A stretch of 64,000 nt of DNA from Chrysomallon squamiferum (Eukaryota; Animalia; Mollusca). Every line of letters starts with the position of its first letter. Positions within the stretch are counted from its first letter, which is position 1. The stretch lies in NCBI GenBank assembly GCA_012295275.1, contig CM022678.1:2418001-2482000 (forward strand). The letters are read 5' to 3'. Positions 2,538-52,887 of this stretch are shown here, in pieces. The position numbers and the translations under genes were made by a program. The notes beneath the pieces are model-generated. The model searched no databases. It had not been told where the DNA came from and saw nothing but the letters and a program-made list of their open reading frames with translations.

Positions 2538-3836
2538 GTATTTATAACTATTTTATAATTATTTGTTCAAAAAATGAAAAGTTAACCAAGTTCATATATT
2601 GTATTAAATAAGAAATACATTTCAATTTTTTTAAATTTTAGAATCAAATTGAATACATATAAATATAGACAGTTAGAACTGAAAGTGTGGTCTACTAATA
2701 ATCTCAGTGTTCTGTACTTATGACTGGCCAAGGCAGAATTATTATAGTTTTGTTTTACACTGTCAAACAGTTAAATATTTAATATTTATACTGCAGTTTG
2801 ACAAAAAGCATGGAGACATGATACACTATTTCAAAAATATGGAACATCATTCTGTTGTTAATCATCACAAAGTTGTAATTACTTGTCACATGATGTCACT
2901 CATTACCTCGGTGCTTAAATTTTCTTTTCACGTATATTTGTGACATTTTCACTGTAAATCCTGTGAAAAATGTAAAATTGATGTCATGACACCTAAAATA
3001 ATGGCAGTGCTGTAATTTTTATGGACTGTTGTTACATTGCACATGTTTAGTTCATTTCCAGGAATTTCTGACAACTATTCCCTGAAAAGATCAAATGCAA
3101 AATGTTGTAAGGCTAATTCATTAGATCTAAGTTTTACATTAATAGCATTGTTATCACTATTCTTTCATGAGTAATTTTGTATAACAAAATATAAAATTAC
3201 TATTTACATTTGTTAACTTAATAAAAGTATTCAGATGTTATATTTATATTTATTTCATTTATATAACATAATTTAATACATTACACAAAACTAAGAATAT
3301 AACAGTAAAACTATTCACGTATTTAACTGAATTCTGATGACATAATTTTACCCATGTTATTGTCGCACAGCAACTCAAAAACAAAGTAAGACTAATTAAT
3401 TAGGACTACATTTTTATGCACAACATTGTGAAAATTATGTTTTCATTAATATTTTTAAATAACTTTAAAAACTTAGAACTATTATTAAAACCATTTTTAT
3501 TTGATCATTTTTTTTATAATGTTCCAGGAATATGTTTATAGAATAAAAGTTCAGAATACAGTCTGTAAGGCTAAAATTAGTATTGATACAAGGAACTAGA
3601 TATGCTCCAGTGTATTCAGATCTGTACTGATGACTGGCCAAAGCAGAATTACTAAACTTTCGTTAAATATTTATACCTGGTAGGTGAACATATTACGTCT
3701 CTTGTTACATTGCACAGCTTTAGATTATTTCCAGTCATTTCTGAGAGCTGTTTTCTTGATATTTACTATGTATAATTTTAATATTTACACATTTTTGAAA
3801 TACCGCTAGTAAATCTCTATGTGTTTCAGTTTGAGT

Positions 3837-3934
3837 ATGTCTACTGAAGAAAACAGAACAACTGAGAAATACAGCAACCCAGCTGCCAAGTCACCATCCC
3901 CTAAAAAGAGTAAAAGAAATAAATTCAAAATGAG
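3837..3934 (+). CDS. Gene A cassette exon 1 (exon 3830-3934, ATG at 3837): MSTEENRTTEKYSNPAAKSPSPKKSKRNKFKM
   Basis: GTGTTTCAG acceptor, GAG|GTAATT donor, 105 nt, phase 2-2, open frame. Homologous to gene B exon 43341-43466. Confidence 0.65.
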
Positions 3935-5633
3935 GTAATTGTAGAGAACTGAGTTTTTATGTAATGTTATATTATAATTGTATTTTCATGAGCATTTTTT
4001 AATTGAATTAAATTTAGGTGTAGTTGCTATATTTCAAAAATTTGGAAACTTATTAAAACTATTTATCTTTCATCATTATTTTTTTTCTTTTTTAAATGTT
4101 CCAGGAATATATTTATAGAACAAAAGTTGAGAATAGTATTAATACAAGGAAACAGACGTACTTCAGTGTATTAAGACCCGTACTTATGACTGGCGAAGGC
4201 AGAATTGCTAAAGCTTTGTTTTGCACTCTGTCAATCTTATGCATAATGCAGTTTCAGAAAAACATGGAGACAGGATACACTGGCCTGTCACAGTGAAATC
4301 AGTTGTTCCTGTCAGGCAGAAACAATATCATTCTGTTGTTAATCATCACAACGTTGTAATAACTTGTCACATGTTGTCACTCATTATCTCAGTGCTAAAA
4401 TAGCCTCCAGGTGTATATTTGTGACATTTTAATTTGTATCATTTATATCACAGAATTTACTATAATTACAATATCTTTAGTAATTTAGTAATGGACTAAA
4501 CTAAGAATATAACATAGTAAAACTACTGACATGTTATATTCATAATTCTCTTGTTTATTAAATGTAATTTATTCTTATGTTATTTTTATAATGATATTGT
4601 TTATATAACATAATTTAGTACAATTGATTATACTATGAATATAATTTAATAGAAGTACTGACAAGTTATGTATTATTTATAGAGCATGAATTCTGACAGT
4701 TTCCAAAACTAAGACTATAACTTAACAAAACTATTCACATGTTATATTTATAATTCTCTTTTGTATATAACAGTTTACTACAGTTGAAAAAAACTAAGAA
4801 TATAACATGTAGTAAAACTGTTCATGTTTTGTATTTATTTGTATTGTTTATATAACATAATTCAGCACAGATGACAAAACCAAGAATATAACTCAGTGGA
4901 GCTATTGTCGTCATATGTTTCATTGTGTTGTTTACATAACATAATTTAGTACAGATGAGAAAAATAAGAATATAACTTGATAGAACTATTCATATATTAC
5001 ATTTATAATTGTCTTATTTATATAGCATGATTTAGTATGGTTGACAAAATTAAGAATATAAGTTAGCAAAACTGTATAACATAGATTGGTAATAAGAGTG
5101 GAACTGATTCTAGTGTTATTGATATGATGTAGTACATGAATATGGATCCTGAACTATGTGAAGTGAATCAGCTGAGATTGCTCTGTATCTTTTAAAGATT
5201 ATTATTTGAGAAATAATGTTTTTATTTCAAGAAGTATGACATGGGAGTTTGAAAATCAAATATGAAAGTGTTTATCCGCTTTCAGTGAGACAAATTTGTC
5301 GGTCACTTATCTAACTGAATTCTCATGATATGATGTTAAACATGTTATTGTGATTAGCTGTTTAGAATTTGTTTTTGACTTTCCTTTGTGTATGCAGACT
5401 GATGAACATGTTTGTCTTCAGTATGAAAAATGCAATAAAAGCAATATTGATGACCAGCATATCCTGAAACCTAAAATAATCGCTGTGCAGTAACTTTCAC
5501 TGTCTCTTATTACGTTGCACACCTTTAGTTATTTCCCGTCATTTCTATGAATTTTTCCCTTCATATTTACCATGTGTATTTGTAATATTTAGAAACAATT
5601 GAGATAACACTAGTAAATCTCTGTGTGTTTCAG

Positions 5634-5729
5634 ATTGACTATCAGTACTGTCAAGAAAGAGAACAACCCAAAGCGAGAACATGCAGCAGTCAGAAGAAAG
5701 ATAAAAAAAATGAGAGAGTTGAGCATGAA
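5634..5729 (+). CDS. Gene A cassette exon 2: LTISTVKKENNPKREHAAVRRKIKKMRELSM
   Basis: GTGTTTCAG acceptor, AA|GTAAGA donor, 96 nt, phase 2-2, open. Confidence 0.55.
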
Positions 5730-6582
5730 GTAAGATTTAGTATTTAGAACTAAGATTTTTCATTAATAGCATTCTGACCAATATGTTTTCATGAGTTCTT
5801 TGTATAATAAAATCTAAAATTTATCTGAGTACTTTAGTATTTTCAAAAATATTTCAGGAGTTTATTTCTACAAAACGTTAAAGAACAAAAAGACTACAAC
5901 TGGCACAAGTATATAATTTATACAAATTAAGGTGAATCAAGGAAACTAACAATATACATTAGTAACACTATTCACATTTATGTTTATATTTGCATTATTT
6001 ATATAGCATAATGTAACACAGATGAAAAATCCAAGAATATAACGTAGAAGTTACTCATGTTACATCTATATTTGTATTGTTTTTATATCGTAATTTAGTA
6101 CAGTGAACAAAACTAAGAATATAACATAATAAAGCAATTCACATGCTACATTTATAATGGAATTGTTTATATCACATGTTTTGGTACAGTTGTCTAAACT
6201 AAGAACATAAGTAAGTAGAGTTGACAAATCTAAGAATATAACTTGATAGAACTATTCACATATTACACTTATAATTTTCTTGTTTATATAGCATAATTTA
6301 GTACGGTTGATAAAATTTGTTTTTGACTTTCCTTTGTGTATGCAGACTGATGAACATGTGTGTTTTCAGTATGAAAAATGAATTAAAAGGAAAGTTTATG
6401 ACTTGCATATCCTGAAACCTAAAATAATCACAACACAGTAACTTTCATTGTCTCTTGTTACAAAGCAGAGCTTTGGATACTTTCCCGTTATTTCTAAAAA
6501 ATGTTCCCTTCATATTTACCATGTGTCTTTGTAATATTTAGAAACAATTGAGATAACACTGGTAAATCTCTGTGTGTTTCAG

Positions 6583-6711
6583 GTTGACTATGAAAACTCG
6601 GCAAAGGAAAAGAATTGCCGAGAAAGAGAGCGACCCAAAGCAAGAACCTGCAGCAGTCAGACAGTCATCACCCAGTAGAAAGATGGAAAAAAAGACAAAG
6701 TCGAACACGAG
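6583..6711 (+). CDS. Gene A cassette exon 3: LTMKTRQRKRIAEKESDPKQEPAAVRQSSPSRKMEKKTKSNT
   Basis: GTGTTTCAG acceptor, GAG|GTAAGA donor, 129 nt, phase 2-2, open. Confidence 0.65.
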
Positions 6712-7560
6712 GTAAGATTTTGTATTTAGAACTAAGATTTTTCATTAATAGCATTCTGACCAATATGTTTTCATGAGCTTTTGGTGTAATAAAATGTAAA
6801 ATTTATCTGAGTACTTTAGTATTTTCAAAAATATTTGAGGAGTTTATTTCTACAAAATGTTAAAGAACACAAAGACTACAACTGACACATAATTTATACA
6901 AATAATTAAGTTTAATCAAGGAAACTAACAATATAAATTAATAACACTATTCACATTATGTTTATATTTGTATTATTTATATAGCATAATGTAATACAGA
7001 TGAAAAATCCAAGAATATAACGTAGAAGTTACTCATGTTACATCTATATTTGTATTGTTTTTATATCGTAATTTAGTACAGTGAACAAAACTAAGAATAT
7101 AACATAATAAAGCAATTCACATGCTACATTTATAATGGAATTGTTTATATCACATGTTTTGGTACAGTTGTCTAAACTAAGAACATAAGTAAGTAGAGTT
7201 GACAAATCTAAGAATATAACTTGATAGAACTATTCACATATTACACTTATAATTTTCTTGTTTATATAGCATAATTTAGTACGGTGAATAAAATTTGTTT
7301 TTGACTTTCCTTTGTGTATGCAGACTGATGAACATGTGTGTTTTCAGTATGAAAAATGAATTAAAAGGAAAGTTTATGACTTGCATATCCTGAAACCTAA
7401 AATAATCACAACACAGTAACTTTCATTGTCTCTTGTTACAAAGCAGAGCTTTGGATACTTTCCCGTTATTTCTAAAAAATGTTCCCTTCATATTTACCAT
7501 GTGTCTTTGTAATATTTAGAAACAATTGAGATAACACTGGTAAATCTCTGTGTGTTTCAG

Positions 7561-7663
7561 GTTGACTCGGCAAAGCAGAAGGATTGCCGAGAAAGAGAGC
7601 AACTCACACCCAGAGCCTGCTGTAGTCAGACAATCATCACCCAGTAGAAAGATAAAAAAGAGA
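7561..7663 (+). pseudogene. Truncated cassette exon copy lacking its donor site
   Basis: Same acceptor and peptide type (LTRQSRRIAEKESNSHPEPAVVRQSSPSRKIKKR), but it runs directly into intron-type sequence with no phase-2 donor. Confidence 0.55.
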
Positions 7664-7808
7664 ATAACTTTCATTGTGTCTTTTTACATTGCACAGATTT
7701 AGATTATTTCCAGTCATTTCTGAGAGCTGTTTCCTTGATATTTACTATGTATATTTATAATATTTAAACATTTTTGAAATACCGCTAGTAAATCTCTATG
7801 TGTTTCAG

Positions 7809-7913
7809 TTTGAGTATGTCTACTGAAGAAAGCAGAACAACTGAGAAATACAGCAAACCAGCTGCCAAGTCACCATCCCCTAAAAAGAGTAAAAGAAATA
7901 AATTCATAGTGAG
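7809..7913 (+). CDS. Gene A cassette exon 4 (near copy of 3830-3934)
   Basis: GTGTTTCAG acceptor, GAG|GTAATT donor, 105 nt, phase 2-2, in-frame ATG at 7816. Confidence 0.65.
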
Positions 7914-8893
7914 GTAATTGTAGAGAACTGAGCTTTTATGTAACGTTGTTATAATTGTATTTTCATGAGCATTTTTTAATTGAATTAAATTTAGGTATAG
8001 TTGCTATATTTCGAAAATATGGAAGCTTATTAAAACTATTTATCTTTCATCATTTTTTTTTTTCTTTTTTAAATGTTCCAGGAATATATTTATAGAACAA
8101 AAGTTGAGAATAGTATTAATACAAGGAAACAGACGTACTTCAGTGTATTAAGACCCGTACTTATGACTGGCGAAGGCAGAATTGCTAAAGCTTTGTTTTG
8201 CACTCTGTCAATCTTATGCATACTGCAGTTTCAGAAAAACATGGAGACAGGATACACTGGCCTGTCACAGTGAAATCAGTTGTTCCTGTCAGGCAGAAAC
8301 AATATCATTCTGTTGTTAATCATCACAAAGTTGTAATAACTTGTCACATGCTGTCACTCATTATCTCAGTGCTTAAATTTTCACCAGATCAGATGTATGT
8401 TTGTGACATTTTTATTTTAGTTGTTTATATCACATAATTTGCTACAGTAAGAATATTATTAAAACTATTCAGATATTATCTATACATTTATTTTATTTAT
8501 ATATTTTAATGCAAATGTCAAACCTAATAGTACACTTCAGTTATTATTAATTATTCTGATAATTATTATGTTTAATACAAAACTAGAATATATCTTGGAA
8601 TAAATTTTGTGTTGATTAAAGTTAATACAGTTAAAAAAGAAGACTACAAAACTAAGATATAACATGGTATAACTATTCTAATAGTTATTATGTTTACAAT
8701 AAAACTAAAGAATATCTGTGTTTGACTATTGTTATAATTATATTGTAGGTTGCAATTCAGGAAAAGATCCTACAAATGCTTTATGATAAAAGTTCCTTCA
8801 CTATATATCTGATACCATATAACAGTGAATGCAGTTTATTAAATAAAGCCTTCCTTTTCTTCTATATCAAAAATCATTAATATATATTTCCAG

Positions 8894-9024
8894 CTCAGCC
8901 AATATGGATGACAAATATAAGAGATCAGATGTTTCCGTTAGCACCTCCGATGTTTATTCCTCATCCAACATCTTAGCTGTTTCTTCCAGAGGCCAAAATG
9001 TACCTACATCGCATCATCATTATG
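8894..9024 (+). CDS. Gene A Ser-rich linker exon (SANMDDKYKRSDVSVSTSDVYSSSNILAVSSRGQNVPTSHHHY)
   Basis: TTTCCAG acceptor, G|GTAATA donor, phase 2-1. Homologous to gene B exon 43967-44166. Confidence 0.7.
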
Positions 9025-10272
9025 GTAATAGCATATTATTTGCCTTTTATGTTTGGAAATTCTAAACAAAATTTGTATTTGTATTTGTTCCAAAACATTC
9101 ATTATACTGTTTTTATGGTTAATTCTAAACTGATATAATAACTATTTATATCTGTAACTGTCGTTAAACATTCATTCATTTGCTATATCTTTAACAATGC
9201 AATATATTAATAGACTGTTTATTGTTTTGAATAGCTTTTGTAAACTGACACTTTTCTGATTTAAATTAATAATATATTTACAAGTTAAAGGATTTTATGT
9301 ACTGTGTGACAGATCAATACAGCATGTTATAATTATTCGTGTATTGGCCATTTTTTTAATTTATGTTGTAATGGATGAAAACAGTATTCCATTAACAACT
9401 TCATGTCACAAACACATTCCGTGCTTTCTGACTTTTAGAAGTCATTTTACTACAGTGCAGATTTTCTAGCAAATACTTTTGCTAGACTATACCACTACAA
9501 AACTATTTTTCATTAAATAGAAGAAAAACCGATTTCTTTTCATAAGTTTTTACACATTTATTTTGGTATATAAGAAAGTGGTCATCTGCTATTTATGGCA
9601 ATTACACAGTTTTTTTTGCCTGTTTTTTTACACTCATTCTAAAACCATGATTACCTTTAACGTTTCAAGTTTGAAAATGTACATACTGACAGTAAGTTTT
9701 CAGCAGTAAATACATCTTTATTTATCTATTTATTTATTTATAAATAATGTAAAACCTAATCACTTACACATGGTCATCTAACTTGCAACTCCTTGGCAGA
9801 TAGCAAGTCACAGACATATATGCATATATGCTAAACAAACATATAATTTAAATGTAGTTTGCTGAACAGTATTAAAAATATTAATTATTGGTTGATTTTT
9901 TGTTATCATATCTGAATTAACTTTTCTGTCAACATTATGAAATTACTACACACACTGTTTTGCTAGACTGCTCCAGATTTTCTTCTAGTAAAAAAAGTAA
10001 TCCAAATCAGTTTATCATAAATTAACAATCCAGAGACTTTTGTCTGCTTTTTATTAGAAAATGCACACGTGTTATTATTTGATTATTTATGCATAATTAG
10101 TTAAGAATATTAAACAAATTTTTTTAAACATGTAATTTTATTTTTGTATTCAGTAACACTGTTATGACAGATTGTATTAATTCTGTACATTGTCATATCT
10201 TTACATGTAGATCAAAAATAGTTTGATAATTATTTTTATGAATTGTGATTTTAAATAATTTCTTTTACTCAG

Positions 10273-10398
10273 TTGACAAAGATACTGGAAGAAAACAACC
10301 AGTGGTAGAACATAATGTAAATATCAGCACAGTTCAGAATTACCAGGCTGTGTCAAATAACAGGAATATTGTGTTTGGAGATCAAGTTATTAAAATCA
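10273..10398 (+). CDS. Gene A exon with RHIM-like motif (DKDTGRKQPVVEHNVNISTVQNYQAVSNNRNIVFGDQVIKI)
   Basis: TTTACTCAG acceptor. Donor A|GTAGTT sits at the position homologous to the gene B donors A|GTAAGTT. 126 nt, phase 1-1, open. Confidence 0.65.
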
Positions 10399-10834
10399 GT
10401 AGTTAAAAACTGAAAGTTTTATAGTCTCTAGCTGTTTAATACATAACAGAATACACATGACAGCAGTCATTAGTACTTTTCTGTCATTCACTGTGACATG
10501 ACCAACATAGAAAGATGCACATGCACACACAGTCACACACACACAGTCACACACACAAATTATAAAGAGTGTTACTCTTATCTAGAATTTCGTTTTAATA
10601 TAAATTATTGATATAATTCAACCTGATTTAAACAAGCCAGTATATCTGTCATTATCACTTGGAAACACTGAAATACAGTACAAAGAACATACTACTACTA
10701 CTACTACTACTACTAAAAATAATAATAATAATAATAACAGGATATAAGTAACAACAGTAATAACAAACACCACAGTAGTTTCGATAAAAGTAATAATGAA
10801 ATGTAAAATATAAACTTTTTTTATATTATTTCAG

Positions 10835-10867
10835 CAGAGACTGATGAACAAATATCCCATTTAACAG
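10835..10867 (+). CDS. Gene A 33-nt microexon (ETDEQISHLT)
   Basis: TTTCAG|CAG (NAGNAG) acceptor, CAG|GTATTT donor, phase 1-1. Confidence 0.6.
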
Positions 10868-11075
10868 GTATTTTATAATTATTATTTGTAATAGTTTTCA
10901 AAGATATTCATAAATAACAAGATAACCTTTACACCATCTAAAATTATGACAAATAAATTGATGCATTTTTTTTTAAACTTCACATCTGATAAGCAGTTAA
11001 AACTGATATTGCTTATATTGAACTGATAAAATATGTTCTAAACAATTAATAATACATTTTTATATTATGATACAG

Positions 11076-14000
11076 AGTCTACCAGGTCAGTGTTAAACTC
11101 AGTTGACTGGAGTGTCTATGTTGAAACAAGAGCAGAGAAAAGAGGTGTTGCACTTTTGAAGAGGAGCGGTGCTGTGATTGTAGTAGGATGTCCAGGTTCA
11201 GGAAAGACAACTCTAGCTTTAAGCATGATGAAACAGATAGAAAAAGAAGAAAAAAGAGAATCTTACTTCCTGACTCATCACAATGAATTCAGTGACATCT
11301 CTCCATCTAGAAAAAACAGATCTGTTGTTCTCATTGATGATATACTTGGTAAAACTAATCTTGTTTCAGATTGTATAAACAAACAGGAACACAAATTTTC
11401 AGAGCTATGGAATCTTGTTCTGTATGGTTCTGTGAAATGTATTATTACTTTAAGAAAACAAATATATTTAGAAAGTGAAATTAGTTTGAAGGAATTTGAT
11501 CTCTTTTGTGAGAATCCTGTTCTTGATCTGCAGAGTGATGACTGTTGTCTGAATTATGATGAAAAGGCAGAAATTCTAAACAAATATCTCAAACAAAAGG
11601 ATGTTCCAATGAATGAAACTGATAGAACGACTGTCATTTACAGTTCATATACAGAGTTAGGATTTCCTCAGATGTGTGTGTTTTATGTTAATTCAAGTGA
11701 TGCACAGAAAAGAGGAGTTGAGTTTTTTAAGAAACCTGTAGAATATCTCAAAGAAGAGCTGGAAAATTTGAAAACTGACAAATCTTCACAGATCAACTAC
11801 CTGGTTCTACTGTTGATCATGTTCAAACAAGGCAGTCTCAGCATTGATTCACTGGACCCTTTTGAAAATGACACTGACAGTGACATAATGAAATTAGTAA
11901 GAAAGCTAGAGCGATTCTGTCAGAGTGTAAAAAATACTGATCTTACAGATATAAAGAAAACTGCTGATGTAATGTGTGGTACATATTTGAAGTGTTGTGA
12001 CAATAAATACACATTTATTCACCAGTCAGTTTTTGACTGTTTGTTTCTGATGGTTTCATCAGAGTTTCCAAAGAAAGCAGCAGAGTTGCTAGAAGTGTGT
12101 CCAGTTTCCATATTGTTAGAATATGTTGTGACGCCTGGAGTGTCTAACAAAAGTCACATTACAATGACTCTGACACCTGACTGCTTTGATGTTCTTGCTC
12201 GCAGATTTACTGACCTGCTGGCATCAGACAATGCAAGAGAAATTATTTCACATCCATCACTGAAAGATGAAGAATTTCTGAAATATGTTACAGAGGAAAC
12301 TAACTTTTATGGTAGGCTCTCTGAAATACTGGATTACAGAGTATGTGGAAATAAATATTTTTACATATCATCTGTACATGCAGACAGTGTTAATGAAATA
12401 TTTAGCAATATTTCGTGTCTTCTTGACAGTGATTTAAAGTTTCATTTATTGGAATTTAATTTTTGTTATGTAAATTCATCATCTGTTGCAAGTGAGTGTG
12501 TTGCAAATGGACTAAGAACATTGTCACGATTTTTCACATCAAACTGGTGTAAAATGGAATTAACAGATCAGCAAAAAGAACTTTTGGGTATCTCTTGTTT
12601 GTTTGGTGATGAAGATGTTGTGAGAATGTTGCTAAAATCAGGAGTTGCACAAACATTTGTAACATTCTGTGCAGCTGCTTCTTCAAAAACAGACAGTGCT
12701 ACCATACTCAAAGAACTGTTACAGTATAAAAAAGAGATAAAATTGACTATGTGTTCTCACTTGCTGTATATTTCAATTTGTTCAGGTAACATGAACATTG
12801 CCTGTCTGTTGGCTGACATGATAAACACTAACAAACATAACAGTGAAATCAAGGAAAAAGCTGTGAAACTGTTATTGGTTAGATTTCATAGACAAGTACG
12901 ACTTAAATCAAGTAATATGTGTTTTGAAAACTTAAACACATTTAAAGTTTTTGATGTAGGCCACCTATTTAAGAAACTGGTTACCACTGATATAATAAAC
13001 AAAATTAAAGACATTGCTATCGTTGCTGCTGGTCAGAGTACTTCAAGTGTTATAAAAGAAATAGTAAAATTGAAACCTGATTGTTTAAATGATGAGAACA
13101 GAGATAAAGTACTTTTAGCAGCAGCAATGTGGGGATCTACTGACACAGTGAATTTTCTCATTGAGCAGAGATGTAATGATACAGATGAGAACAACTGGAA
13201 GAAAGGTGAAGTACTGAAAGTGGCAGTGATGTTTAACAGTGTAGATGTTGTTCAGTGTCTTCTTGATAAAGGAGCTGATCCTAATGTGAATACAGCTGTT
13301 AACCAGAAATTGATTCAGTTGTTTGAAGAGGAAATTAGATTAAAACTGGTGTCTGGTGACAAAACTAGTTTGAAATTGTTACCTTCAGACTCACCACTCC
13401 ACATTTCAGTTCTGTGTGGTGACTTACATATGCTAAAATCACTGATAGAGAGAAAAGCTGATGTTAATGCAGTAAACACTGAAGGTAAAACTCCTCTGCT
13501 TCTGTCATTAAGTTATGACAAACCTGAAATAGCTTTATATTTACAACAGCATGGAGCTGATCCTAATTCAAGAGACAATGATAACAATTCTGTTTTACAT
13601 CTAGCAGCTAAACATGAATATAAGGAAATTAAAACAGCACTGATTGAAACCAGTGAAAAAAATAATGTTTGGCCATCTTCTCCTGAAAAGCAGGACAAAC
13701 TAGTTTTGTATTTACTAAAACATGCAACTGGTCATTATTTAACAGAGAAAGATACCAATTCTGTTTTACATCTAGCAGCTGTGCATGGAAACATAGAAAT
13801 TGTGACAGCACTCATTAAAAAAGGTGTTGATGTAAATATTAAAAACTGTAGAGGTGAAACTCCTCTCTTTAGTGCTGTTAATTTTGATGAAGATAAATTC
13901 TGTCCATCTCTGAATTATGGAAAATGGCAAGTATTTTCTTATTTACTGGAACTTGGAGCTGATCCTAATTTAACAGACAGTGATAACAATTCTGTTTTAC

Positions 14001-15397
14001 ACCAAGCAGCTGCACATGGAAATACAGAAATTGTGAAGGCACTGATTGAAAAAGGTGTTGATGTCAATATGAAAAATAGTAAAGATGAAACTCCCCTTTT
14101 TATAGCTGTGAACTGTAATCATACCAAAGTAGTTGTGAGTTTACTGGAACATGGAGCTGATCCTAATTTAACATACAATGACAACAATTCTGCTTTACAC
14201 CAAGCAGCTGCACATGGAAATACAGAAATTGTGAAGGCACTGATTGAAAAAGGTGTTGATGTAAATATTAAAAACTGTAGAGGTGAAACTCCTCTCTTTA
14301 GTGCTGTTAATTTTGATGAAGATAAATTTTGTCCATCTCTGAATTATGGCAAATGGCAAGTATTTTCTTATTTACTGGAACATGGAGCTGATCCTAATTT
14401 AAGAGACAGTGATAACAATTCTGTTTTACACCAAGCAGCTGCACATGGAAATACAGAAATTGTGACTGTACTGATTGAAAAAGGTTTTGATGTAAATATG
14501 AAAAATAGTATGGGTGAAACTCCTCTTTTTATAGCTGTGAACTGTAATCATACCAAAGTAGTTGTGAGTTTACTGGAACATGGAGCTGATCCTAATTTAA
14601 CATACAATGACAACAATTCTGTTTTACACCAAGCAGCTGCACATGGAAATACAGAAATTGTGAAGGCACTGATTGAAATAGGAGTTGATGTCAATATGAA
14701 AAATAGTAAAGGTGAAACTCCTCTTTTTAAAGCTGTGAACTCTCATAAGAACAAAGTAGTTTTGTATTTACTGGAACATGGAGCTGATCCTGAGATAACA
14801 GATAATGATAACAATTCTGTTTTACACCAAGCAGCTGCACATGGAAATACAGAAATTGTGAAGGCACTGATTGAAAAAGGTGTTGATGTTAATATTAAAA
14901 ACAGCCGAGGTGAAACTCCTCTTTTTGCAGTTGTTTATTATGATGAAGGTGAGCTTGAACTTAATCGATGTCTGAATGATGACCATCCTGATTTACACCA
15001 GTCAGCTGAATATGGAAATATGGAATTGATGACCCTTGCGCCCAAATCATTAGGTTCTGGAATTGTTGTAAACAGTCGAGGTGAAACTGCTTTTCTTGCA
15101 GCTCATAAGAACAAAGTATTTTTTTATTTATTGGAACATGGAGCTGATCCCAATTTAAGAGACAATGACAACAATTCTGTTTTATTCTTAGCAGCTAAAC
15201 ATCAGAATATAGAAATTGTGACAGCACTGATTGAAGAAGGTTTTTATCTTAATCGTGATGAACTTGACACATTGCTGAAAGATAAAAAATGTCAAGCAAG
15301 TTTTGATTTACTAGAACATGTAGCTGATCGTAATTCTGTTTTACACATAGAAAGTATACCAATTTTTAAAACATCTAATTCAAAAGATAAATACTGA
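11076..15397 (+). CDS. Gene A terminal exon: STAND (nSTAND3-like) P-loop NTPase plus ankyrin repeats
   Basis: 1435-aa ORF extended to the in-frame acceptor TACAG|. Walker A GCPGSGKT (11186-11209), Walker B VVLIDDILG, FIHQSVFD motif, many GETPLF..A / NSVLH.AA..G ankyrin repeats. Confidence 0.93.
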
Positions 15398-19447: not shown

Positions 19448-19479
<32 letters not shown>

Positions 19480-21679: not shown

Positions 21680-21729
<50 letters not shown>

Positions 21730-21770
21730 TATATATATATATATAATGTTTTTATTACATATATATACTC

Positions 21771-39670: not shown

Positions 39671-40282
39671 AAACTTAAACTATACTGCTTTTAGTAGTGA
39701 CTGTTGATTGTTTATGTAAAACATTAAAAATTTTCTATGCTAATCCGAAACTCACATTTCTTTTCAGTTTTCATTTTTTTTATTAAAGGTATGACCAAAT
39801 AAAATTATAATATTTCTATTTAATTAATTTGTACATAAAACAATAAGCATATGAAGAAAAAGTGTATTATCGTCTGGTATATTTAGTATAGGTCATGGCC
39901 GTAACTGCACTGAGGCAAGTGCCTCATACCGAAAAAAAAAAATATATATATATATTTTTTTTTTTTATATACCAAAATTTATTTTAAAAAATATAAAACA
40001 TAAATGTCTATTCCAATAGACACAATATTCAATAAATTAATTTCATGATCCTGTAAGTGTGCCAGAAACAGGCCTGACATCGGACAAGTTTCGCCTCCAA
40101 ACGCAGTGACCGATAATTTGCGCTGTATAAAAAGGCCTAAGTTTTAGAAGGGCACAAAAATGGTAACTGTTCAATCCACAGAAAGAAATTCGATGCTGGT
40201 TTATAAAAAGTCAGAGTTCAGAAATTATTTTATGTTGTCAACATATTTTCAAAGTAAAAGTTCACTGATCCCAGGATACTTA

Positions 40283-43347: not shown

Positions 43348-43466
43348 ATGTCTACTCGACAAAGCAGCAGAATAGCTGAGAAACACAGCAACCCAAAGTC
43401 AGAATGTTTCTCACTCAGCCTATCAACACCCCCTAAAAAGAAGAGGAAAATCGAATCCAGTACATG
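43348..43466 (+). CDS. Gene B first coding exon (exon from 43341): MSTRQSSRIAEKHSNPKSECFSLSLSTPPKKKRKIESST
   Basis: TTTTTTAG acceptor, TG|GTAAGA donor, 126-nt phase 2-2 exon. Homologous to the gene A cassette exons. Confidence 0.75.
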
Positions 43467-43966: not shown

Positions 43967-44166
43967 GTCAGCCATTATTAATGACAAAAACAAGAGTTCA
44001 GAAGATTGTTCTAACCTCACACCTGTTCCTTCCTCAGAGTCACTGACAGCTGTTTCTCTCGCAAAAAATATCAGTCGTGTACCTCTATCTGACATGACGT
44101 CTCCGTCTTCCAATGGCATCACAAATACAGAACGTTGTTTACAACAACCTGTGTCAACCAGCTCTG
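43967..44166 (+). CDS. Gene B Ser/Pro/Thr-rich linker exon
   Basis: TTTTAACAG acceptor, G|GTAATA donor, 200 nt, phase 2-1, open. Confidence 0.75.
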
Positions 44167-44560: not shown

Positions 44561-44644
44561 ATAGACAAATAATATGCGTACAATCAACAGTGAACATATC
44601 TGTTTCTGAAGATGGTGATTTAGGAATCGACAATTATTTAAGTA
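44561..44644 (+). CDS. Gene B exon (RQIICVQSTVNISVSEDGDLGIDNYLS)
   Basis: TTTCATAG acceptor, A|GTAAGT donor, 84 nt, phase 1-1. Confidence 0.65.
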
Positions 44645-45720: not shown

Positions 45721-45936
45721 GTGAATATGCATGTTTTAGCATTTTTAACACGGATGTTCTGATGCAGTGGTGGTCAGTTGTTATTTTATTTATGTATTTA
45801 TGTTTACCTAATCTCCATTTAACAATATGTCAGAATCTCCATTAGGTAAACATAAATACATAAATAAAATAACAACTGACCACCACTGCATCAGAACATC
45901 CGTGTTAATTAAAAAAGCTAAAACATGCATATTCAC
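45721..45936. repeat. Long inverted repeat in a gene B intron
   Basis: 68-bp perfect arms (45745-45812 / 45841-45908), 20-bp perfect outer arms, 28-nt spacer. Confidence 0.95.
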
Positions 45937-46205: not shown

Positions 46206-46241
46206 CAACACAACCTGTGGTAGATGAAGCTGATGAAACCA
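46206..46241 (+). CDS. Gene B 36-nt microexon (TQPVVDEADET)
   Basis: TTTGCAG acceptor, A|GTAAGT donor, phase 1-1. The flanks and QPVV match gene A exon 10273. Confidence 0.65.
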
Positions 46242-47105
46242 GTAAGTTAAAAACTGAAACATACTTAATACATAACAGAACTAAATACTTCCATATTTAT
46301 AAAACGTCACCATGTTGTGGAATCACCCACTTGTCATTTCTTTTTTTAGTCCCAGAACCAGAACTTGAACTTCTCACCCCATCTCAAAGCCATAGATATA
46401 CGTTTCCTATGGCTGCTAATTAAACTAACCTTAAATTTAAATATGCATATTCACTTATTTTCCAGTTAAACAGTTAGTAAAAGAAATATATCACAGATAA
46501 CCAGGTTTTATGTTAAGCAATGATGAGATTATCTCATTTCATAATAACATATATCTGCACATATGAACGCAGAGACAATAAATTAGCAACATTAAACATG
46601 CACGCACTTATGTGCACATACACACACACAGTATAGAATACATATTCAAAAAGAATAATAATACCAGCAATAACAGTAAATAACAGCAGTGATAAAAAAT
46701 ATCACTGAAATTAATAGTAGTTGTTCTAATTATATAAATTCAATAACAGAAACATAATAATATAATATTTAGTGTTCCATGAATAATTAAACAGATAATT
46801 TAAATCATTAGTAACAAAAACTTACTTGGAGTTTTTGGTTGTTTTTTCCTACTATTTCAGCAAAGATTGATAGATGAGCATTGTTTTCAAAGATATTCGT
46901 TACTTTTTGCACCATCCAAAATTGTGACATTTTATAATCTTTGTTATATTCTGATGAACAAAAAGTATGACAACCAAATTGCTGCTTTATTTTAAAAATG
47001 TGATACCTGATAACCAGTTAAAAAGTATATTATTTATGTTTAAAATTTAAAATATGCTCTAAACAGTTACTAACAAAATCTTTTTTTTTTATTGTTGTGA
47101 TTTAG

Positions 47106-50100
47106 ATTTTCCCAGGTTAGCATTAGACTCAGTTGACAGACGTGTCTATGTTCAAACAAGAGCAGAAGAAAGAGGTGTTGCACTTTTGAAGAAGCATGGT
47201 GTTGTGATTATAGTAGGATGTCCAGGTTCAGGAAAGACAACTCTAGCTTTGATCATGATGAGACAGATAGAAAATGAAGAAAAAAGAGAATCTTACTCAC
47301 TGACTCAAGCCTCTGAATTCAGTGAGATCTCTCTATCTAGAAATAAGAAATGTGTTGTTCTCATTGATGATATATTTGGTAAGACTAATCTTGTTTCACA
47401 TTTTATAGACTCATGGAAACTGAAATTTCCAAAGATATGGAATCTTGTTCAGAATGGTTCTGTGAAATGTATTATTACTTTAAGAAAACAAATATTTTCA
47501 GAAACTGAAATAAGTCTGAAGGAATTTGATCTGTTTAATGAGAAACATGTTCTTGATCTGCAGAGGGATGACTGTTGTTTAAATTATGATGAAAAGTTTG
47601 AAATTCTAAACAAATATCTCAAAGAAAAGCATGTTACAATGGATGACAATGATAAATACACTGTCATTTACAGTCCATATAAACAGTTAGGATTTCCTCG
47701 GGTGTGTGCATATTATGTTAGTTCAAGTGATGCACAAAAAAGAGGAATTCAGTGTTTTGAGAAACCTGTAGAATATCTCGGACAACAGCTGGAATATTTG
47801 AAAAATGACAGATCTTCACAGATCAACTACCTGGTTCTACTGCTGATCTTGTTCCAACAAGGCAGTCTCAGCATTGATTCACTGGACCCATCTGAAAATG
47901 ACACTGACAGTGACATAATGAAATTAGTAAGACTGCTAGAGCGAGTCTGTCAGAGTCTAGAAAACACTGATCTTACAGAGATCAAGGAAACAGCTGATGC
48001 AATGTGTGGTACCTATTTGAAGTGTTGTGACAATAAATACACATTTATTCATCAGTCAGTGTTTGACTCTTTGTTTCTGATGTTTTCATCAAATTTTCCA
48101 AAGAAAGCAGCAGAATTGCTAGAAGTGTGTCCAGTTTCCATGTTGTTAGAATATGTTGTGACGCCTGGAGTGTCTAACAAAAGCCACATTACAATGACTG
48201 TGACACCTGACTGCTTTGATGTTCTTGCTCGTAGATTTACTGACTTGCTGGCATCAGACAATGCGAGAGAAATTATTTCACATCCATCACTGAAAGATGA
48301 AGAGTTTCTAGGATATCTCATGGAGGAAAAAAACTTTTATGGTAGGTTGTCTGAAATACTGCAACAGAGACTATATAAACATCAAAATGAATTTTCTTAT
48401 ATGTCATTTGTACATGTAGACACTGTCAATGAAATATTTTGCAATAGTTTATATATTTTTGACAATGAGTCAACATTTCATTCTAGTTACATGTGGTATT
48501 TGGAAGTTGAAGAGTGTTATATAAATTCTTCATATTTTGTAAGTGAGTGTATTGTGAACGGACTAAGAACACTGTCAAGATTTTTCACATCAAATCTCTG
48601 TAAAACAGAATTCATGTATCTGAAAAAAGAAGTTTTGGACATTTCTTGTTTGTTTGGTGATGAGGATGTTGTGAGAATGTTGCTAAAATCAGGTGTTATT
48701 CCAACATTTGATACATTCTGTGCAGCTGCTTCTTCAAGAGCAGACAGTGCTACCATACTCAAAGAACTGTTACAGTATAAAAAAGTTGTAACATTGGATC
48801 TGTGTTCTGACTTGTTACATATTTCAATTTGTTCAGGTAACATGAACATTGCCTGTCTGTTGGCTGAGATGATAAACAAAAAGAAACACAACAGTGAAAT
48901 CAAGGAAAAAGCTGTGAAACTGTTTTTGGTTAGATTTCATAGACAAGCAAAACTTTACACAAGCAACAAGTATTTGGAAAACTCAAAGAGTTATAAAGAT
49001 GTTGATGTAAGCCATCTATTTAAGAAACTTGTTACCTTTGATATAATAAACAAAACTAAAGACATTGCTATCATTGCTGCTTGTCAGAGTACTTCAAGTG
49101 TTATAAAAGAAATAGTAAAACTGAAGCCTGATTGTTTAAATGATGAGAACAGAGATAAAGTACTTTTAGCAGCAGCAATATGGGGATGTACTGATACAGT
49201 GAATTTTCTCATTGACCAGAGACGAAATGATACAGATGAGAACAACTGGAAGAAAGGTGAAGTACTGAAAGTGGCAGTGATGTTTAACAATGCAGATGTT
49301 GTTCAGTGTCTTCTTGATAAAGGAGCTGATCCTAATGTGAATGTAGCAGTTAAGGAGAAATTGATTCGGTTGTTTGAACAGGAAATTAGATTAAAAATGT
49401 TGTCTGATGACAAAACTAGATTTGAACTGTTGCCAGCTGTTAAAACTAGATTTGAACTATTGCCTCCAGACACACTTCTTCACATTTCAGTTCTGAGTGG
49501 TGACTTAGATATGATAAAATCACTGATAGAGAGAAAAGCTGATGTTAATGCAGTAAACAGTGAGGGAAAAACTCCACTTCATGAAGCTGTAAAAGCAGTG
49601 AAATACAGAAAGGAAATAGCTTCGTTGTTACTAGAAAATGGTGCTGATACTAACATAACAGATAAACAAAAGAATTCAACATTGCACATAGCTTGTCAAA
49701 TTGACGTAGATGTGGTGAAAGAAGTAATAAAAAAAGGTGTTGAAATAAATGCAGTTAACACTGAAGGTCAAACTGCTCTTTTTATATCTTTATTCTATAA
49801 CACACCAGAAATAACTTTATATTTACTGGAACATGGAGCTGATCCTAATTTAACAGACAATTGTAATAACTCCATTTTACAAAAAGCAGCTCAACATGGA
49901 TATAGAGAAATTGTGATAACACTGATTAAAAAAGGTGTTGATGTCAATATTAAAAACAGCCGAGGTGAAACTCCTCTTTTTACATCTGTCAAGTATGAAC
50001 AGGACATGGTAGTTTTGTATTTACTGGAACATGGAGCTGATCCTAATTTAACAGACAAAGATAACAATTCTCTTTTACACCTAGCAGCTAAACATGGAAA

Positions 50101-51619
50101 TATAGAAATTGTGATAACACTGACTGAAAAAGGTGCTGATGTAAATTTTAGAAACAATCAAGGTGAAACTCCTCTTTTTGCAGCTCTTAAGTATGATGAG
50201 AACAAAGTAGTTTTGTATTTACTGGAACATGGAGCTGATGCTAATTTAACAGACAAAGATAACAATTCTGTTTTACACCTAGCAGCTAAGCATGGAAGAA
50301 TCGAAATTGTGAGAGCACTGATTGAAAAAGATATTGATCTAAATATTAAAAACAGTTCAGGTGAAACTCCTCTTTTTACAGCTGTTAACTATGAACAGAA
50401 CAAAGTAGTTTTATATTTACTGGAACATGGAGCTTATCCTAATTTAATAGACAATGATAAGAATTCTGTTTTACACACAGCAGCTAGATGTGCAAATATC
50501 AAAATTGTAACAGCACTCATTGAAAAAGGTTTTGATGTAAATGTTAAAAATTGTAGAGGTGAAACTCCTCTTTTTGCAGCTGTTAAGTATGAACAGAACA
50601 AAGTAGTTTTGTTTTTACTTGAGCATGGAGCTGATCCTAATTTAACAGACCATGATGACAAATCTGTTTTACACCAAGCAGCTGAAGAAGGAAATACAGA
50701 AATTGTGAGAGCACTGATTGAAAAAGGTGTTGATCTAAATATTGAAAATAGTCGAGGTGAAACTGTTCTTTTCACATCTGTTAAGTATGAACAGAACAAA
50801 GTAGCTTTTTATTTACTGGAGCATGGAGCTGATATCGATACAATAGACAATGACAACAATTGTGTTTTACACCTAGCAGCTAAACATGGAAATATGGAAA
50901 TCGTGACAGCACTGATTGAAAAAGGTGTAGATATAAATATTAAAAACTGTCAAGGGGAAGCTCCTCTTTTCTCAGCTCTCAACTACTACGGAAGTCATTT
51001 TTGCAAACATCCAGATGTGTATTCTTGTACGAGTAAAATATTGTTGTATTTACTGGAAAATGGAGCTGATCCTCATTTAACAGACAATGATAACAATTCT
51101 GTTTTACACCTAGCAGCTAAACATGGAAATATTGAAATCATGACAGCACTGATTGAAAAAGGTGTAGATATAAATATTAAAAACTGTCAAGGGGAAACTC
51201 CTCTTTTCTCAGCTCTCGACTACTACGGACGTCATTTTTGCAAACATCCAGATGTGTATTCTTGTATGAGTAAAATATCGTTGTATTTACTGGAACATGG
51301 AGCTGATCCTAATTTAACAGACAATGATAACAATTCTGTTTTACACCTAGCAGCTAAACATGGAAATATAGAAATCGTGACAGCACTGATTGAAAAAGGT
51401 GTAGATATAAATATTAAAAACTGTCAAGGGGAAGCTCCTCTTTTCTCAGCTCTCGACTACTACGGACGTCATTTTTGCAAACATCCAGATGTGTATTCTT
51501 GTATGAGTAAAATATCGTTGTATTTACTGGAACATGGAGCTGATCCTAATTTAACAGACAATGATAACAATTCTGTTTTACACCTAGCAAAACATGGAAA
51601 TATAGAAATCCAGCACTGA
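47106..51619 (+). CDS. Gene B terminal exon: STAND (nSTAND3-like) NTPase plus ankyrin repeats
   Basis: 1477-aa ORF extended to the acceptor TTTAG|, which is homologous to the gene A acceptor. Walker A at 47216-47239, VVLIDDIFG, FIHQSVFD, long ankyrin array. Confidence 0.92.
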
Positions 51620-51686
51620 TTGAAAAAGGTTAAATATTAAAAACTGTCAAGGGGAATATTGTTGTCATTTTTGCAAACATCCAGAT

Positions 51687-52217
51687 GTGTATTCTTGTAC
51701 GAGTAAAATATTGTTGTATTTACTGGAACATGGAGCTGATCCTAATTTAACAGACAATGATAACAATTCTGTTTTACACCTAGCAGCTAAACATGGAAAT
51801 ATGGAAATCATGACAGCACTAATTGAAAAAGGTGCAGATGTAAATAAAAAAAACACTAAACGGGAAACGCCTCTTTTTACAGCTCTCAGCTACAACAAAC
51901 ATCCAAATGTGTATTCTTGTAAGAATGAAGTAGTTTTGTATTTACTGGAACATGGAGCTGATCCTAGTATAACAGACTCTGATGAGACTTCTGTTTTACA
52001 CCTAGCAGCTGAACATCAAAACATAGAAATTGTGAAAGCACTAATTGAAAAAGGTGTTAATGTAAATATTAAAAACAATCAAGGGGAAACTCCTCTTTTT
52101 ATAGCTGTCAAATATAAGCAGAAATTAGTTATTTTTTATTTGCTGGATCACGGAGCTGATCCTCATTTAAAGGACAATAATAATAATTCTGTTTTACACT
52201 TAGCAGCATCTGATTGA
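51687..52217 (+). CDS. Out-of-frame continuation of the gene B ankyrin array (probably the true C-terminus)
   Basis: Intact repeats of the same type resume after a garbled unit at ~51585-51670. Confidence 0.65.
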   Translation: MYSCTSKILLYLLEHGADPNLTDNDNNSVLHLAAKHGNMEIMTALIEKGADVNKKNTKRETPLFTALSYNKHPNVYSCKNEVVLYLLEHGADPSITDSDETSVLHLAAEHQNIEIVKALIEKGVNVNIKNNQGETPLFIAVKYKQKLVIFYLLDHGADPHLKDNNNNSVLHLAASD

Positions 52218-52887
52218 AGTATAGAAATTGTCACAGCACTGATCAAAAATGGTGGTAATGTGAATATTAAAAATGTCAATGTGAAACTGCTCTATTTATC
52301 TATTGGGACAAGAAGCTGATGCCAATGCAACAGAAAGATATAATAACAATTATAGCAGCTGAACATAGGAAATATAAAAATTGTAAAAGCACTTATTGAA
52401 AAAGGTGCTGATTTAAATGTTAAAAGCAGTGGAAATCAAACTCGTCTTTATACAGCTGTTAAGTAGTTTTGTTTTTACTGGAACAAAGAGCTGATGCTAA
52501 TATAATAGAAAGATATAATAAGAATTTTCTTTTACACTGAGTAGCTGAATACGAAAGTGTAAAAATTGTGACAGGACTGATTGAAAAAGATACTGATGTA
52601 AATATTAAAAACAGTCACAGAGAAACTCCTCTTTTTACAGCTGTTAAGTATAAAAAGAACAAAGTAGTTTTGTATTTACAGTGGCTTGGAAATGATGCTA
52701 ATTCAGCAGATACATATAACAATTCTGAAGATTGAAATATTGAAATTTTGACTGTAATAATTGAAAAAAATGTGTTGATGTAAATGTGTTTAATTCTCTT
52801 GATAAAGCTAAGAATTGCAGATTTTGTTGTGAAAGGGAAACTGTTTTGTATTTACTGGAGCATGGTGCTAAAGATGGTAACAGATAA
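52218..52887 (+). pseudogene. Decayed ankyrin repeats downstream of the gene B stop, ending in the apparent ancestral terminus ETVLYLLEHGAKDGNR*
   Basis: Recognisable repeat DNA with stops and indels. The homologous terminus (ETVLYLQENGAKDSNR*) lies after the gene A stop at ~15480-15530. Confidence 0.8.

Follow-up and report, generated by a model that had tools for sequence, protein, structure and literature searches.

Two nSTAND3-ankyrin genes of Chrysomallon squamiferum and a RHIM-like motif in their molluscan branch

Introduction

The window analysed here, a 64-kb stretch of Chrysomallon squamiferum DNA, contains two neighbouring genes, G1 and G2, which raise the question of how proteins built from a STAND-type NTPase and an ankyrin array might signal. 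A sequence-only reading of the locus had described a cluster of rapidly diversifying immune or allorecognition receptors. The best explanation as a whole, which we hold with a little more confidence than doubt, is that the genes encode molluscan nSTAND3-ankyrin sensors with RHIM-like amyloid signalling in their branch.

Results

Organization of the locus

Both genes are encoded on the forward strand, 36 kb apart, with predicted proteins of 1679 (G1) and 1650 (G2) amino acids. They share an architecture in which small 5' exons precede a single long exon for the nSTAND3 NTPase, a winged helix and an ankyrin array (Table 1). The corresponding long open frames (11042-15394 in G1, 47063-51616 in G2) stay open for 4.3 and 4.5 kb despite the 29% GC content of the DNA. 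The two full paralogues, the accompanying fragments (the two orphan remnants of Table 1) and the tripartite layout reported by the sequence-only reading are all borne out. That reading placed the start of the cluster at 3830; G1 begins further upstream, with two non-coding exons, and the CpG observed/expected ratio is 1.07 across 1-2300. Position 1732 is the beginning of a contig and not a mapped transcription start. For G2 the small exons are a prediction based on its splice signals, the open reading frame and similarity by descent to G1 exons. An Rfam search gave no matches.

Table 1. Coordinates of features within the window
Feature	Position	Strand	Evidence or content
G1 non-coding 5' exons 1 and 2	1732-1921, 2324-2537	+	Joined in an X5 contig; CpG-rich stretch
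G1 cassette exons 3-6	3830-3934 (ATG 3837), 5634-5729, 6583-6711, 7809-7913	+	Joints in X1 and X5; open frame
Extra (fifth) cassette-exon copy	7561-7668	+	Bypassed by the 6711>7809 joint
G1 exon 7, low-complexity linker	8894-9024	+	Joints 7913>8894 and 9024>10273
G1 exon 8	10273-10398	+	RHIM-like motif VSNNRNIVFG at 10350-10379
G1 exon 9 (33 nt)	10835-10867	+	Paralogous exon 9 spliced to NTPase exon in X5; own joints not among the joints displayed
G1 exon 10	11076-15397	+	NTPase, helical domain, winged helix, arm, beta insert, degenerate then canonical ankyrin repeats
Walker A and Walker B in G1 exon 10	11186-11209, 11324-11341	+	
Orphan ankyrin fragment	34402-35345	+	Stops and frameshifts; no NTPase
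Orphan late-middle and first-ankyrin fragment	36619-37440	+	80-84% amino acid identity to G1/G2, then broken; no NTPase
G2 small exons	43341-43466 (ATG 43348), 43967-44166, 44561-44644, 46206-46241	+	Predicted
G2 NLS-like STPPKKKRKI	43423-43452	+	In exon 43341-43466
G2 homolog of G1 exon 8	44561-44644	+	Without tetrad
G2 long exon	47106-51619	+	Spans nSTAND3 NTPase (Walker A 47216-47239) through ankyrin array; terminates after a frameshifted repeat
G2 frameshift and stop codon	near 51600; 51617-51619	+	
Out-of-frame decayed ankyrins past the G2 stop	51624-52890	+	Open for 197 codons; broken by stops and frameshifts after that

The NTPase belongs to the STAND class

The Pfam nSTAND3 profile (PF20720) matched G1 with 79.4 and G2 with 95.5 bits, against a gathering cut-off of 27.2, over positions 1-154 of its 155; 13 Ank stretches follow in G1 and 16 in G2. 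The NACHT profile stayed below its cut-off (19.4 and 15.7 bits in G1 and G2 versus 26.7), as did NB-ARC, which covered the P-loop only (14.2 and 13.9 versus 23.5). The sequences GCPGSGKT, VVLIDD, TLR, GFP and FIHQ occupy identical positions in the two proteins; we take them to be Walker A, Walker B, the sensor arginine, GxP and an MHD-like FIH motif. Across 61 aligned family rows G40, G42 and K43 are invariant, and D87, R126, G195-P197, F313 and H315 are at least 90% conserved.

A predicted model of the first 421 amino acids reached a pLDDT of 87. Its top VIA matches were MalT (Z 15.3, 327 aligned, rmsd 5.0), NRC2 (Z 14.1, 286 aligned, rmsd 4.0) and, ranking third, PH0952 (Z 14.1, 308 aligned, rmsd 5.0), while Avs5, NLRP3, NLRP9 and Dark appeared at Z 12-13, interspersed with non-STAND AAA+ rows. 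Foldseek likewise matched this model to STAND proteins mixed with other AAA+ proteins, and matched an 841-aa model mainly to ankyrins; a PDB sequence search with the NTPase region gave weak P-loop matches only. The profile search, the motifs and the predicted structure uphold the assignment of the NTPase to the STAND class, and the modelled NBD-HD1-WHD-arm STAND fold is supported. Pfam also agreed with the earlier claim that neither protein carries a Death, TIR or CARD domain. With no NACHT or NB-ARC domain above cut-off, and an ankyrin C-terminus without LRR, the two are not NLRs in the strict sense.

G1 is spliced and carries duplicated basic cassettes

Read contigs were analysed over the G1 region 1500-16200. 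Two runs from two studies, X1 and X5, yielded contigs with six GT..AG joints connecting exons 2-8; the joint 2537>3830 is found in both, and the first intron, between exons 1 and 2, in X5 only. Run X1 is tagged 'DNA?' and has no library record, and it was taken as RNA-derived on the basis of its joints. We set aside the idea that the joints stem from a retrocopy because they are missing from both large DNA runs, X6 and X8. RNA contigs also contain the 3' end and UTR of G1. The joints in X1 and X5 support transcription of G1. The exon-8 donor of G1 is non-consensus, and other copies in the DNA runs have a consensus donor. Read-through into intron 8, seen in G1 contigs of both RNA-type runs, meets a stop at 10404-10406 and gives a 230-aa short form that terminates right behind the RHIM-like motif. 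Summed depth in the DNA runs was 200-950 on the NTPase exon versus about 5-20 for single flanking contigs, an excess that hints at many close paralogs; contig depth is unfit for ranking expression and was taken neither as copy number nor as expression level.

Exons 3-6 of G1 are symmetric duplicates of a single exon (mutual DNA homology z 25-86). In the spliced model the N-terminus is of low complexity, and the cassettes are basic, rich in Ser and Lys, with NLS-like patches and 52 K+R per 240 aa. The STPPKKKRKI stretch of G2 resembles a classical NLS of the SV40 type. The basic cassette is kept by both genes and the RHIM-like motif by G1 only; similar basic patches occur in 6 of 39 other branch proteins. 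Six small exons of the window that were scanned had no family match in Pfam. Neither the basic NLS-like cassettes nor the RHIM-like motif had been noticed in the earlier reading.

A molluscan family with exchangeable N-termini

A homolog search returned 750 relatives at E<=0.001, the nearest of which are Gigantopelta aegis proteins at about 40% identity. All 22 named clusters that were looked up are molluscan, and the family is also present in abalones, mussels, scallops and freshwater mussels. A follow-up search added one abalone protein, the rest being mostly generic ankyrin matches. Every one of 30 near relatives scanned combines nSTAND3 with Ank, one of them also with a caspase domain. In another 30 relatives, chosen mostly for long N-termini, these termini contain HEPN_DZIP3 (nine), Death (two), SAM (two), CARD (one) or DED (one) domains, some below cut-off, which shows that N-termini are exchangeable among relatives. 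The branch that includes G1 and G2 (41 rows) reached an SH-aLRT value of only 86 in a quick tree.

The combination of nSTAND3 and ankyrins is already listed for the oyster Crassostrea virginica, e.g. XP_022297444.1, in source data of Kaur et al. 2021 (PMC8195603), where nSTAND3 is by definition the kind of STAND domain that accompanies TRADD-N proteins in bivalves. Because of this record, and of the Death, CARD, DED, SAM, HEPN and caspase N-termini in relatives, the nSTAND3-ankyrin core is not new, and the novelty that the sequence-only reading attached to it is smaller than implied. The new element is a RHIM-like motif that often stands right before the NTPase in the G1/G2 branch. RHIM itself is an amyloid-forming motif that acts in the cell-death signaling of mammals.

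The RHIM-like motif

The RHIM core tetrad is (V/I)-Q-(V/I/L/C)-G (PMC9444067), within a register of hydrophobic positions 0, +2, +8 and +10, Asn at +4 and Gly at +7/+11 (10.64898/2026.02.19.706818; PMC9444067). Of 42 branch proteins, 3 contain the strict RIPK1/3 register from published RHIM work (hydrophobic residues at 0, +2, +8 and +10, Asn at +4, Gly/Glu at +7) versus 0.1 expected (0 of 2000 shuffles), with no match in 25,517 control residues. Relaxed patterns, defined after the sequences had been viewed, occur in 7, 5 and 11 of the 42 versus 0.6, 0.5 and 2.5 expected, and in 1, 0 and 1 of 25 proteins outside the branch. One relative, P0006, starts with a strict VQFG tetrad, which lies about 60 aa ahead of its first Walker A and recurs before its second NTPase. 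The core tetrad was found in 3 of 67 family segments (0.56 expected), and the relaxed tetrad alone in 16 of 67 family windows versus 8 of 67 control windows.

The tetrad of G1, IVFG, falls outside the core consensus. G1 fits positions +2, +8 and +10 (three of four hydrophobic positions), Asn +4 and Gly +11, misses position 0 and Gly +7, and matches relaxed versions of the pattern only; G2 has no motif.

Hydrophobic spacing alone is not enriched in the branch (12 of 42 versus 9.5, p=0.22), and enrichment extends to loop lengths 7 and 8, so the signal may reflect a general Asn/Gly beta-strand pattern. De novo EM motif search gave best log-likelihoods of 193.5 (60 starts) and 174-184 (20 starts) against a baseline of 167-178 (8 shuffles, 20 starts), which is marginal support. 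When beta alternation was scored without any pattern, the branch stood apart only weakly (mean z 0.67 versus 0.14; G1 z 0.1). The Pfam RHIM profile made no call in the six window exons, stretches of 16 relatives or 60 whole relatives, and a 12-motif profile retrieved no RHIM chain from the PDB at E<=10, both searches being without a positive control; RHIM profiles are underpowered (PMC4262963). Atlas searches made no RHIM call, and a homolog search with G1 exon 8 found nothing. In literature mostly outside subscription journals, we found no account of RHIM-like motifs on molluscan nSTAND3-ankyrin proteins.

Ankyrin repeats and selection

The ankyrin units had been described as nearly identical in DNA, which does not hold in general: mean identity is 90% for A-type and 78% for B-type units of G1, the values for G2 being 83% and 81%, and individual pairs reach at most 98%. 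G1 has a tandem unit of 429 bp (2.4 copies, 91% identity), and G2 has units of 198 bp (5.9 copies, 83%) and 237 bp (3.6 copies, 94%). The proposed hypervariability of the repeats is partly retained, as positions on the concave face are more variable (mean entropy 1.08 versus 0.58, p=0.004), but pN is below pS overall; alleles and paralogs are not separable in the contigs. The strong divergence claimed for the paralogs is confined to their N-termini; elsewhere G1 and G2 are 74% identical over 860 aa, with extremes of 48% in one beta insert and 93% in the arm. Pairwise dN/dS is 1.3-1.8 in the NBD, HD1 and beta insert, an excess over 1 that is not significant for NBD+HD1 (p=0.18) and does not establish positive selection. 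Purifying selection acts on the winged helix (0.46) and arm (0.25), significantly below NBD+HD1 (p=0.0009).

Discussion

G1 and G2 belong to a large family of STAND ATPase-ankyrin proteins in molluscs, likely intracellular immune sensors and quite probably NLR-like. An immune role is a fair inference given the Death, CARD, DED, HEPN and caspase N-termini of relatives; nothing points to allorecognition, the other half of the original proposal. By what is known of STAND proteins, a ligand meeting the ankyrin face would bring about ADP/ATP exchange and oligomerization. As in NWD2/HET-S and RIPK1/RIPK3, oligomerization would then stack the RHIM-like motifs and seed a partner with a matching motif, although the 64-kb window showed no further conspicuous long coding frame that could be such a partner gene. 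A RHIM-like motif would permit signaling without a death domain, and its amyloid clustering could stand in for that domain in the G1/G2 branch. By analogy, amyloid signaling of the branch is plausible, with the balance tipping somewhat against it, and a function for G1's own motif is doubtful. Between these two in standing is the tentative broader proposal that a mollusc-wide nSTAND3-ankyrin branch swapped Death-fold domains for exon-encoded RHIM-like motifs and signals like NWD2/HET-S, the intron-retaining 230-aa form of G1 being a decoy or seed. G2 has lost the motif and may act as a sensor alone or be in decay. Segmental duplication, repeat gain and decay, and duplication of N-terminal exons would together amount to birth-and-death evolution of the locus.

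The N-terminal cassettes could point to another role. If they are NLSs and the RHIM likeness is incidental, G1 and G2 would be effector-less sensors, nuclear or helper-dependent. Nuclear NLRs exist (CIITA, NLRC5), G1 splices four copies of the cassette, and the cassette, unlike the motif, is found in both genes and has counterparts in the few branch proteins noted above. Yet disordered regions often contain basic patches, most branch members have none, and the excess of RHIM-register motifs would be left unexplained; we regard this account as unlikely. It is less probable still that both genes are products in decay, thrown off by a family that duplicates fast, with G1 yielding mainly a truncated transcript and divergence due to relaxed selection. 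The intron-8 read-through at a donor that is consensus in other copies, the frameshift and decayed tail of G2, the two orphan remnants and the raised dN/dS (for NBD+HD1 not significantly above 1) would all suit decay. Against it, the long frames remain open in AT-rich DNA, all catalytic motifs are intact, the winged helix and arm show purifying selection, and the 3' end and UTR of G1 are found in RNA contigs.

A role of the family in symbiont recognition or allorecognition, in place of pathogen defense, is very improbable. It would fit the nearest relatives' host, G. aegis, a symbiont-bearing vent snail for which PMC7895826 reports an expanded ankyrin family, and the allorecognition function that PMC7889193 describes for fungal NLRs of like layout; the family is, however, also present in the bivalves and abalones named above. 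We retain nSTAND3-ankyrin immune sensors with RHIM-like signaling in the branch as the preferred reading and compare them with known systems.

The bivalve proteins of PMC8195603 share the order of nSTAND3 and ankyrins and the molluscan host, but the rows seen there carry TM, Cys-rich and TRADD-N modules, whereas G1 and G2 have only a disordered N-terminus; RHIM is unnamed in the main text and in 12 of 13 supplements of that paper. Fungal NWD2/HET-S and PP-motif NLRs similarly combine a short amyloid-type motif, a STAND NTPase and tandem repeats, and among animals a RHIM-NACHT-repeat protein, BF82280, has been predicted in Branchiostoma (PMC4262963). In contrast to these, the NTPase of G1 and G2 is nSTAND3, not NACHT, and the window yielded no effector gene with a matching motif, which in NWD2/HET-S systems usually lies next door. 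The internal repeats of the fungal receptors are highly similar and polymorphic in length, with variable binding positions under selection; those of G1 and G2 are 78-90% alike. The hydrophobic/Asn/Gly register of RIPK1/RIPK3 RHIM and insect cRHIM is strict in three of 42 relatives and loose in G1, which differs from RIPK1/RIPK3 in lacking the tetrad Gln, one hydrophobic position and a profile call. Bacterial Avs5 (SIR2-nSTAND3-helical repeats), whose anti-phage sensor-switch-effector function is shown in 10.1101/2025.07.08.663546, has an NTPase of the same family, with a structural match of Z 12.7-12.8 across the core. Unlike Avs5, G1 and G2 lack SIR2 (spliced model, Pfam scans), have an ankyrin and not a TPR/Sel1/PPR sensor, and are intron-bearing animal genes.

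Animal NLRs and molluscan NACHT proteins (PMC9646362, PMC9334734) share the tripartite layout, tandem expansion and, with the relatives, Death and HEPN N-termini. They differ from G1 and G2, in which the NACHT profile is below cut-off and LRR is absent; NACHT-based surveys would therefore miss the nSTAND3-ankyrin family. Gastropod NLR counts from NACHT matches are low, with one NLR in Aplysia (PMC9334734), and the nSTAND3-ankyrin family, if large, would fill a gap in the known set of intracellular receptors of molluscs. The breadth of amyloid signaling in animals is posed as an open question in PMC7889193. If the motifs are functional, NLR-type amyloid signaling, shown in fungi and, in the literature consulted, only predicted for amphioxus, would extend to a big animal family. 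The expanded 'ankyrin repeat proteins' of G. aegis may partly belong to the nSTAND3-ankyrin family as well.

Genomic organization of the nSTAND3-ankyrin locus

The window DNA is of animal type, with 29% GC and many microsatellites. The sequence-only reading had described a tandem locus of receptor genes with STAND-class NTPases, and both descriptions held up on examination. Two long plus-strand frames, those of genes G1 and G2, match nSTAND3 above the cut-off (E 3e-22 and 3e-27) and carry ankyrins C-terminal of it, and between the genes lie two broken fragments, both without an NTPase. The full set of STAND motifs is intact in G1 and G2. AlphaFold models of the core are confident (pLDDT 89 and 87), and the closest structures to the first 421 residues of the predicted model are STAND proteins, namely MalT (Z 15.3), NRC2 (14.1) and PH0952 (14.1), with Avs5, NLRP3, NLRP9 and Dark at Z 12-13; non-STAND AAA+ proteins are mixed among these matches, over shorter aligned spans.

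G1 and G2 are parts of a duplicated block with an offset of ~36-37 kb, the similarity of which extends 3' of the genes (~16300-28600 matches 53500-63900). Identity between the copies is 81% in coding exons and 66-75% in those few pieces of intron that can be aligned, both lower than in the 3' non-coding flanks (88-89%); therefore the genes either outpace their flanks in divergence or, once duplicated, exchanged sequence with further members of the family. The duplicated flank also contains minisatellites, and an inverted repeat was seen by eye in a G2 intron.

Coordinates of features in the G1/G2 locus (window positions)
Feature	Positions	Strand	Remarks
Candidate G2 5' non-coding exons	40140-40255, 40738-41190	+	resemble G1 exons 1 (by eye) and 2 (alignment match); CpG-rich stretch
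Insert-bearing ankyrin units	13853-13987, 14282-14416; 50954-51567	+	Cys inserts, 11-13 aa
Non-coding flank pair	20862-25873 / 57025-62085		88-89% identical
Non-coding flank pair	18528-19663 / 55627-56752		88-89% identical
Minisatellite, 54 bp	18754-19239; 55859-56343		x9 in both copies
Minisatellite, 57 bp	20063-21563; 57115-57690		x26 vs x10
Minisatellite, 99 bp	26020-26248		x2.3
Inverted repeat, ~65 bp	~45750-45815, 45842-45905		G2 intron; short spacer
Dead ankyrin ends	~15400-15530; 52790-52890		after the G1 and G2 stops
NBD/HD1; beta insert	11078-11780; ~12320-12500		G1
NLS-like STPPKKKRKI	43423-43452		G2

Gene models and transcripts

The long exon of G1 is present in nine runs from three studies, all of a single organism, and joints were mapped from four runs over 1500-16200. 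Six GT..AG joints (2537>3830, 3934>5634, 5729>6583, 6711>7809, 7913>8894 and 9024>10273), among the 15 listed of 184, are common to X1 and X5, RNA-type runs of two studies, which shows transcription of G1; among the same 15 of 184, these joints are absent from the large DNA runs X6 and X8. When exon 9 and the long exon are added by splice signals, the open frame of G1 comprises 1679 codons from the ATG at 3837, while the G2 model (1650 aa) is a prediction only. One X5 contig joins a sequence like exon 8 to a paralogous 33-nt exon and then to the NTPase exon, so this exon order occurs in family transcripts.

The donor of G1 exon 8 reads gtagtt, and other copies in X6 and X8 are one A longer (gtaagtt). 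Intron 8 is read through for 96 nt in X1 contig sequence that is spliced elsewhere, and likewise in an X5 contig; the G1 form that retains it (non-consensus donor, site 10399-10406) has a predicted stop after 230 codons, 8 residues past the RHIM-like motif. The CpG observed/expected ratio is 1.07 in the stretch upstream of both genes and 0.12 and 0.22 in coding exons, a depletion that is the expected pattern of methylated gene bodies.

The N-terminus is basic and of low complexity. G1 exons 3-6 are symmetric copies of a single exon, each with a basic patch, and their homologue is the first coding exon of G2. NLS-like basic motifs follow Ser/Thr-Pro sites in G2 and, as SPSPKKSKRNK, twice in G1 (exons 3 and 6); the related protein P0003 has repeated basic motifs of similar kind.

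Relatives of G1 and G2

The NTPase-to-middle region retrieved 750 cluster representatives at E<=0.001, the best 150 of which were listed; sources were looked up for 23 of those 150, 22 with a name. Among the matches listed, the best relatives belong to Gigantopelta aegis (35-43% identity), followed by Haliotis and then bivalves, and in a quick tree G1, G2 and six G. aegis proteins form a clade (SH-aLRT 100), a placement that points to a related gastropod as the likely host. All 30 near relatives scanned combine nSTAND3 with Ank. N-termini differ across the relatives, including caspase, HEPN_DZIP3, Death, CARD, DED and SAM domains. The caspase is fused to nSTAND3-ankyrin in P0011 of Haliotis rufescens; another relative, P0001, starts with a hydrophobic stretch resembling a membrane helix. 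Entries in the source data of Kaur 2021 (PMC8195603) define nSTAND3 from bivalves and list nSTAND3+Ankyrin for C. virginica, so the core architecture was already known. G1 and G2 are members of this recorded molluscan architecture, and the new part is the RHIM-like, exon-modular N-terminus.

RHIM-like motifs and a possible mechanism

Of 153 proteins, 69 have more than 45 residues ahead of the NTPase; in these, or in 67 once two redundant rows were removed, we surveyed the 130 residues N-terminal of it. Short beta-type, Asn/Gly-rich motifs ending in hydrophobic-x-hydrophobic-Gly (NVHVG, NVQFG, GVEIG) precede the NTPase, and their counterpart in G1 exon 8 is NNRNIVFG. A relaxed tetrad occurs in 16/67 proteins vs 5.8 in shuffles, control windows also giving 8/67. 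All nine stricter-pattern matches lie within the 41-row tree branch (support 86) that holds G1 and G2 (9/41 vs 0/25; the Fisher p of 0.01 is overstated, since rows share ancestry), and the carriers of Death, CARD, DED and SAM fall outside it. The strict RHIM register, taken from a RIPK1/3 mutational scan and a RHIM review (10.64898/2026.02.19.706818; PMC9444067), is matched by 3/42 branch proteins (the 41 rows plus P0039, placed by similarity) vs 0.1 expected, and by none of 25,517 control residues. Relaxed registers are still enriched after related rows are collapsed (5/26, 4/26 and 9/26). Loop lengths other than that of RHIM are also enriched in the branch, hydrophobic spacing by itself is not, and RHIM was not called by any profile or language-model search. 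We conclude that part of the family genuinely carries RHIM-like motifs, as sequence patterns. That of G1, which fits relaxed forms only, is plausible; the homologous exon of G2 has lost the tetrad. The relative P0006 consists of two tandem units, each with its own NTPase and a VQFG motif at its start, ahead of that NTPase.

The component parts, G1 splicing, exchangeable N-termini and the turnover of repeats and exons are observed. A ligand would be bound by the ankyrin face; the NTPase, by analogy with Avs5 and NLRs, would exchange nucleotide and then oligomerise; and the motifs, once clustered, could seed a partner in the manner of NWD2/HET-S. A comparable layout was predicted for one amphioxus NACHT protein by Kajava 2014 (PMC4262963). 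Amyloid signalling, drawn from such analogies, is a tentative reading for this branch of the family. It seems rather unlikely that these sensors act instead in the nucleus or via a helper protein, and improbable that G1 and G2 are decaying copies; a role in symbiont or self recognition we regard as still more doubtful.

Ankyrin repeats and divergence

Canonical repeats alternate between a 32-aa type A and a 34-aa type B, and some B units carry gene-specific Cys-containing inserts, which sit in the helix-to-helix turn, also contain His in G2, and have duplicates with 95-97% DNA identity. For 14 A and 10 B units, irregular and insert-bearing ones excluded, DNA identity within a gene averages 78-90% and recent duplicates reach 98%. 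Entropy is 1.08 at 14 concave-face positions vs 0.58 at the other 52 (p=0.004, two further B units excluded), under a scheme of designed-ankyrin positions plus one added helix-1 position, the scheme being applied after the column table was seen; overall, pN is below pS among repeats.

Between G1 and G2, dN/dS reaches 1.8 in a beta insert of 60 aa, followed by the NBD (1.5) and HD1 (1.3), vs 0.46 in the winged helix and 0.25 in the arm. The contrast of NBD/HD1 with winged helix/arm is significant (p ~0.001), and the excess of NBD+HD1 above 1 is not. NBD/HD1 and the beta insert, with the highest ratios, may form a second recognition surface besides the repeats. In X6 and X8, contig sequence departs from the window by 1-2% at some places, and several X1/X5 contigs match it exactly, allelic and close-paralogue differences being inseparable here. 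A homologous dead ankyrin end follows the present stop of each gene, so an older common C-terminus was given up in both.
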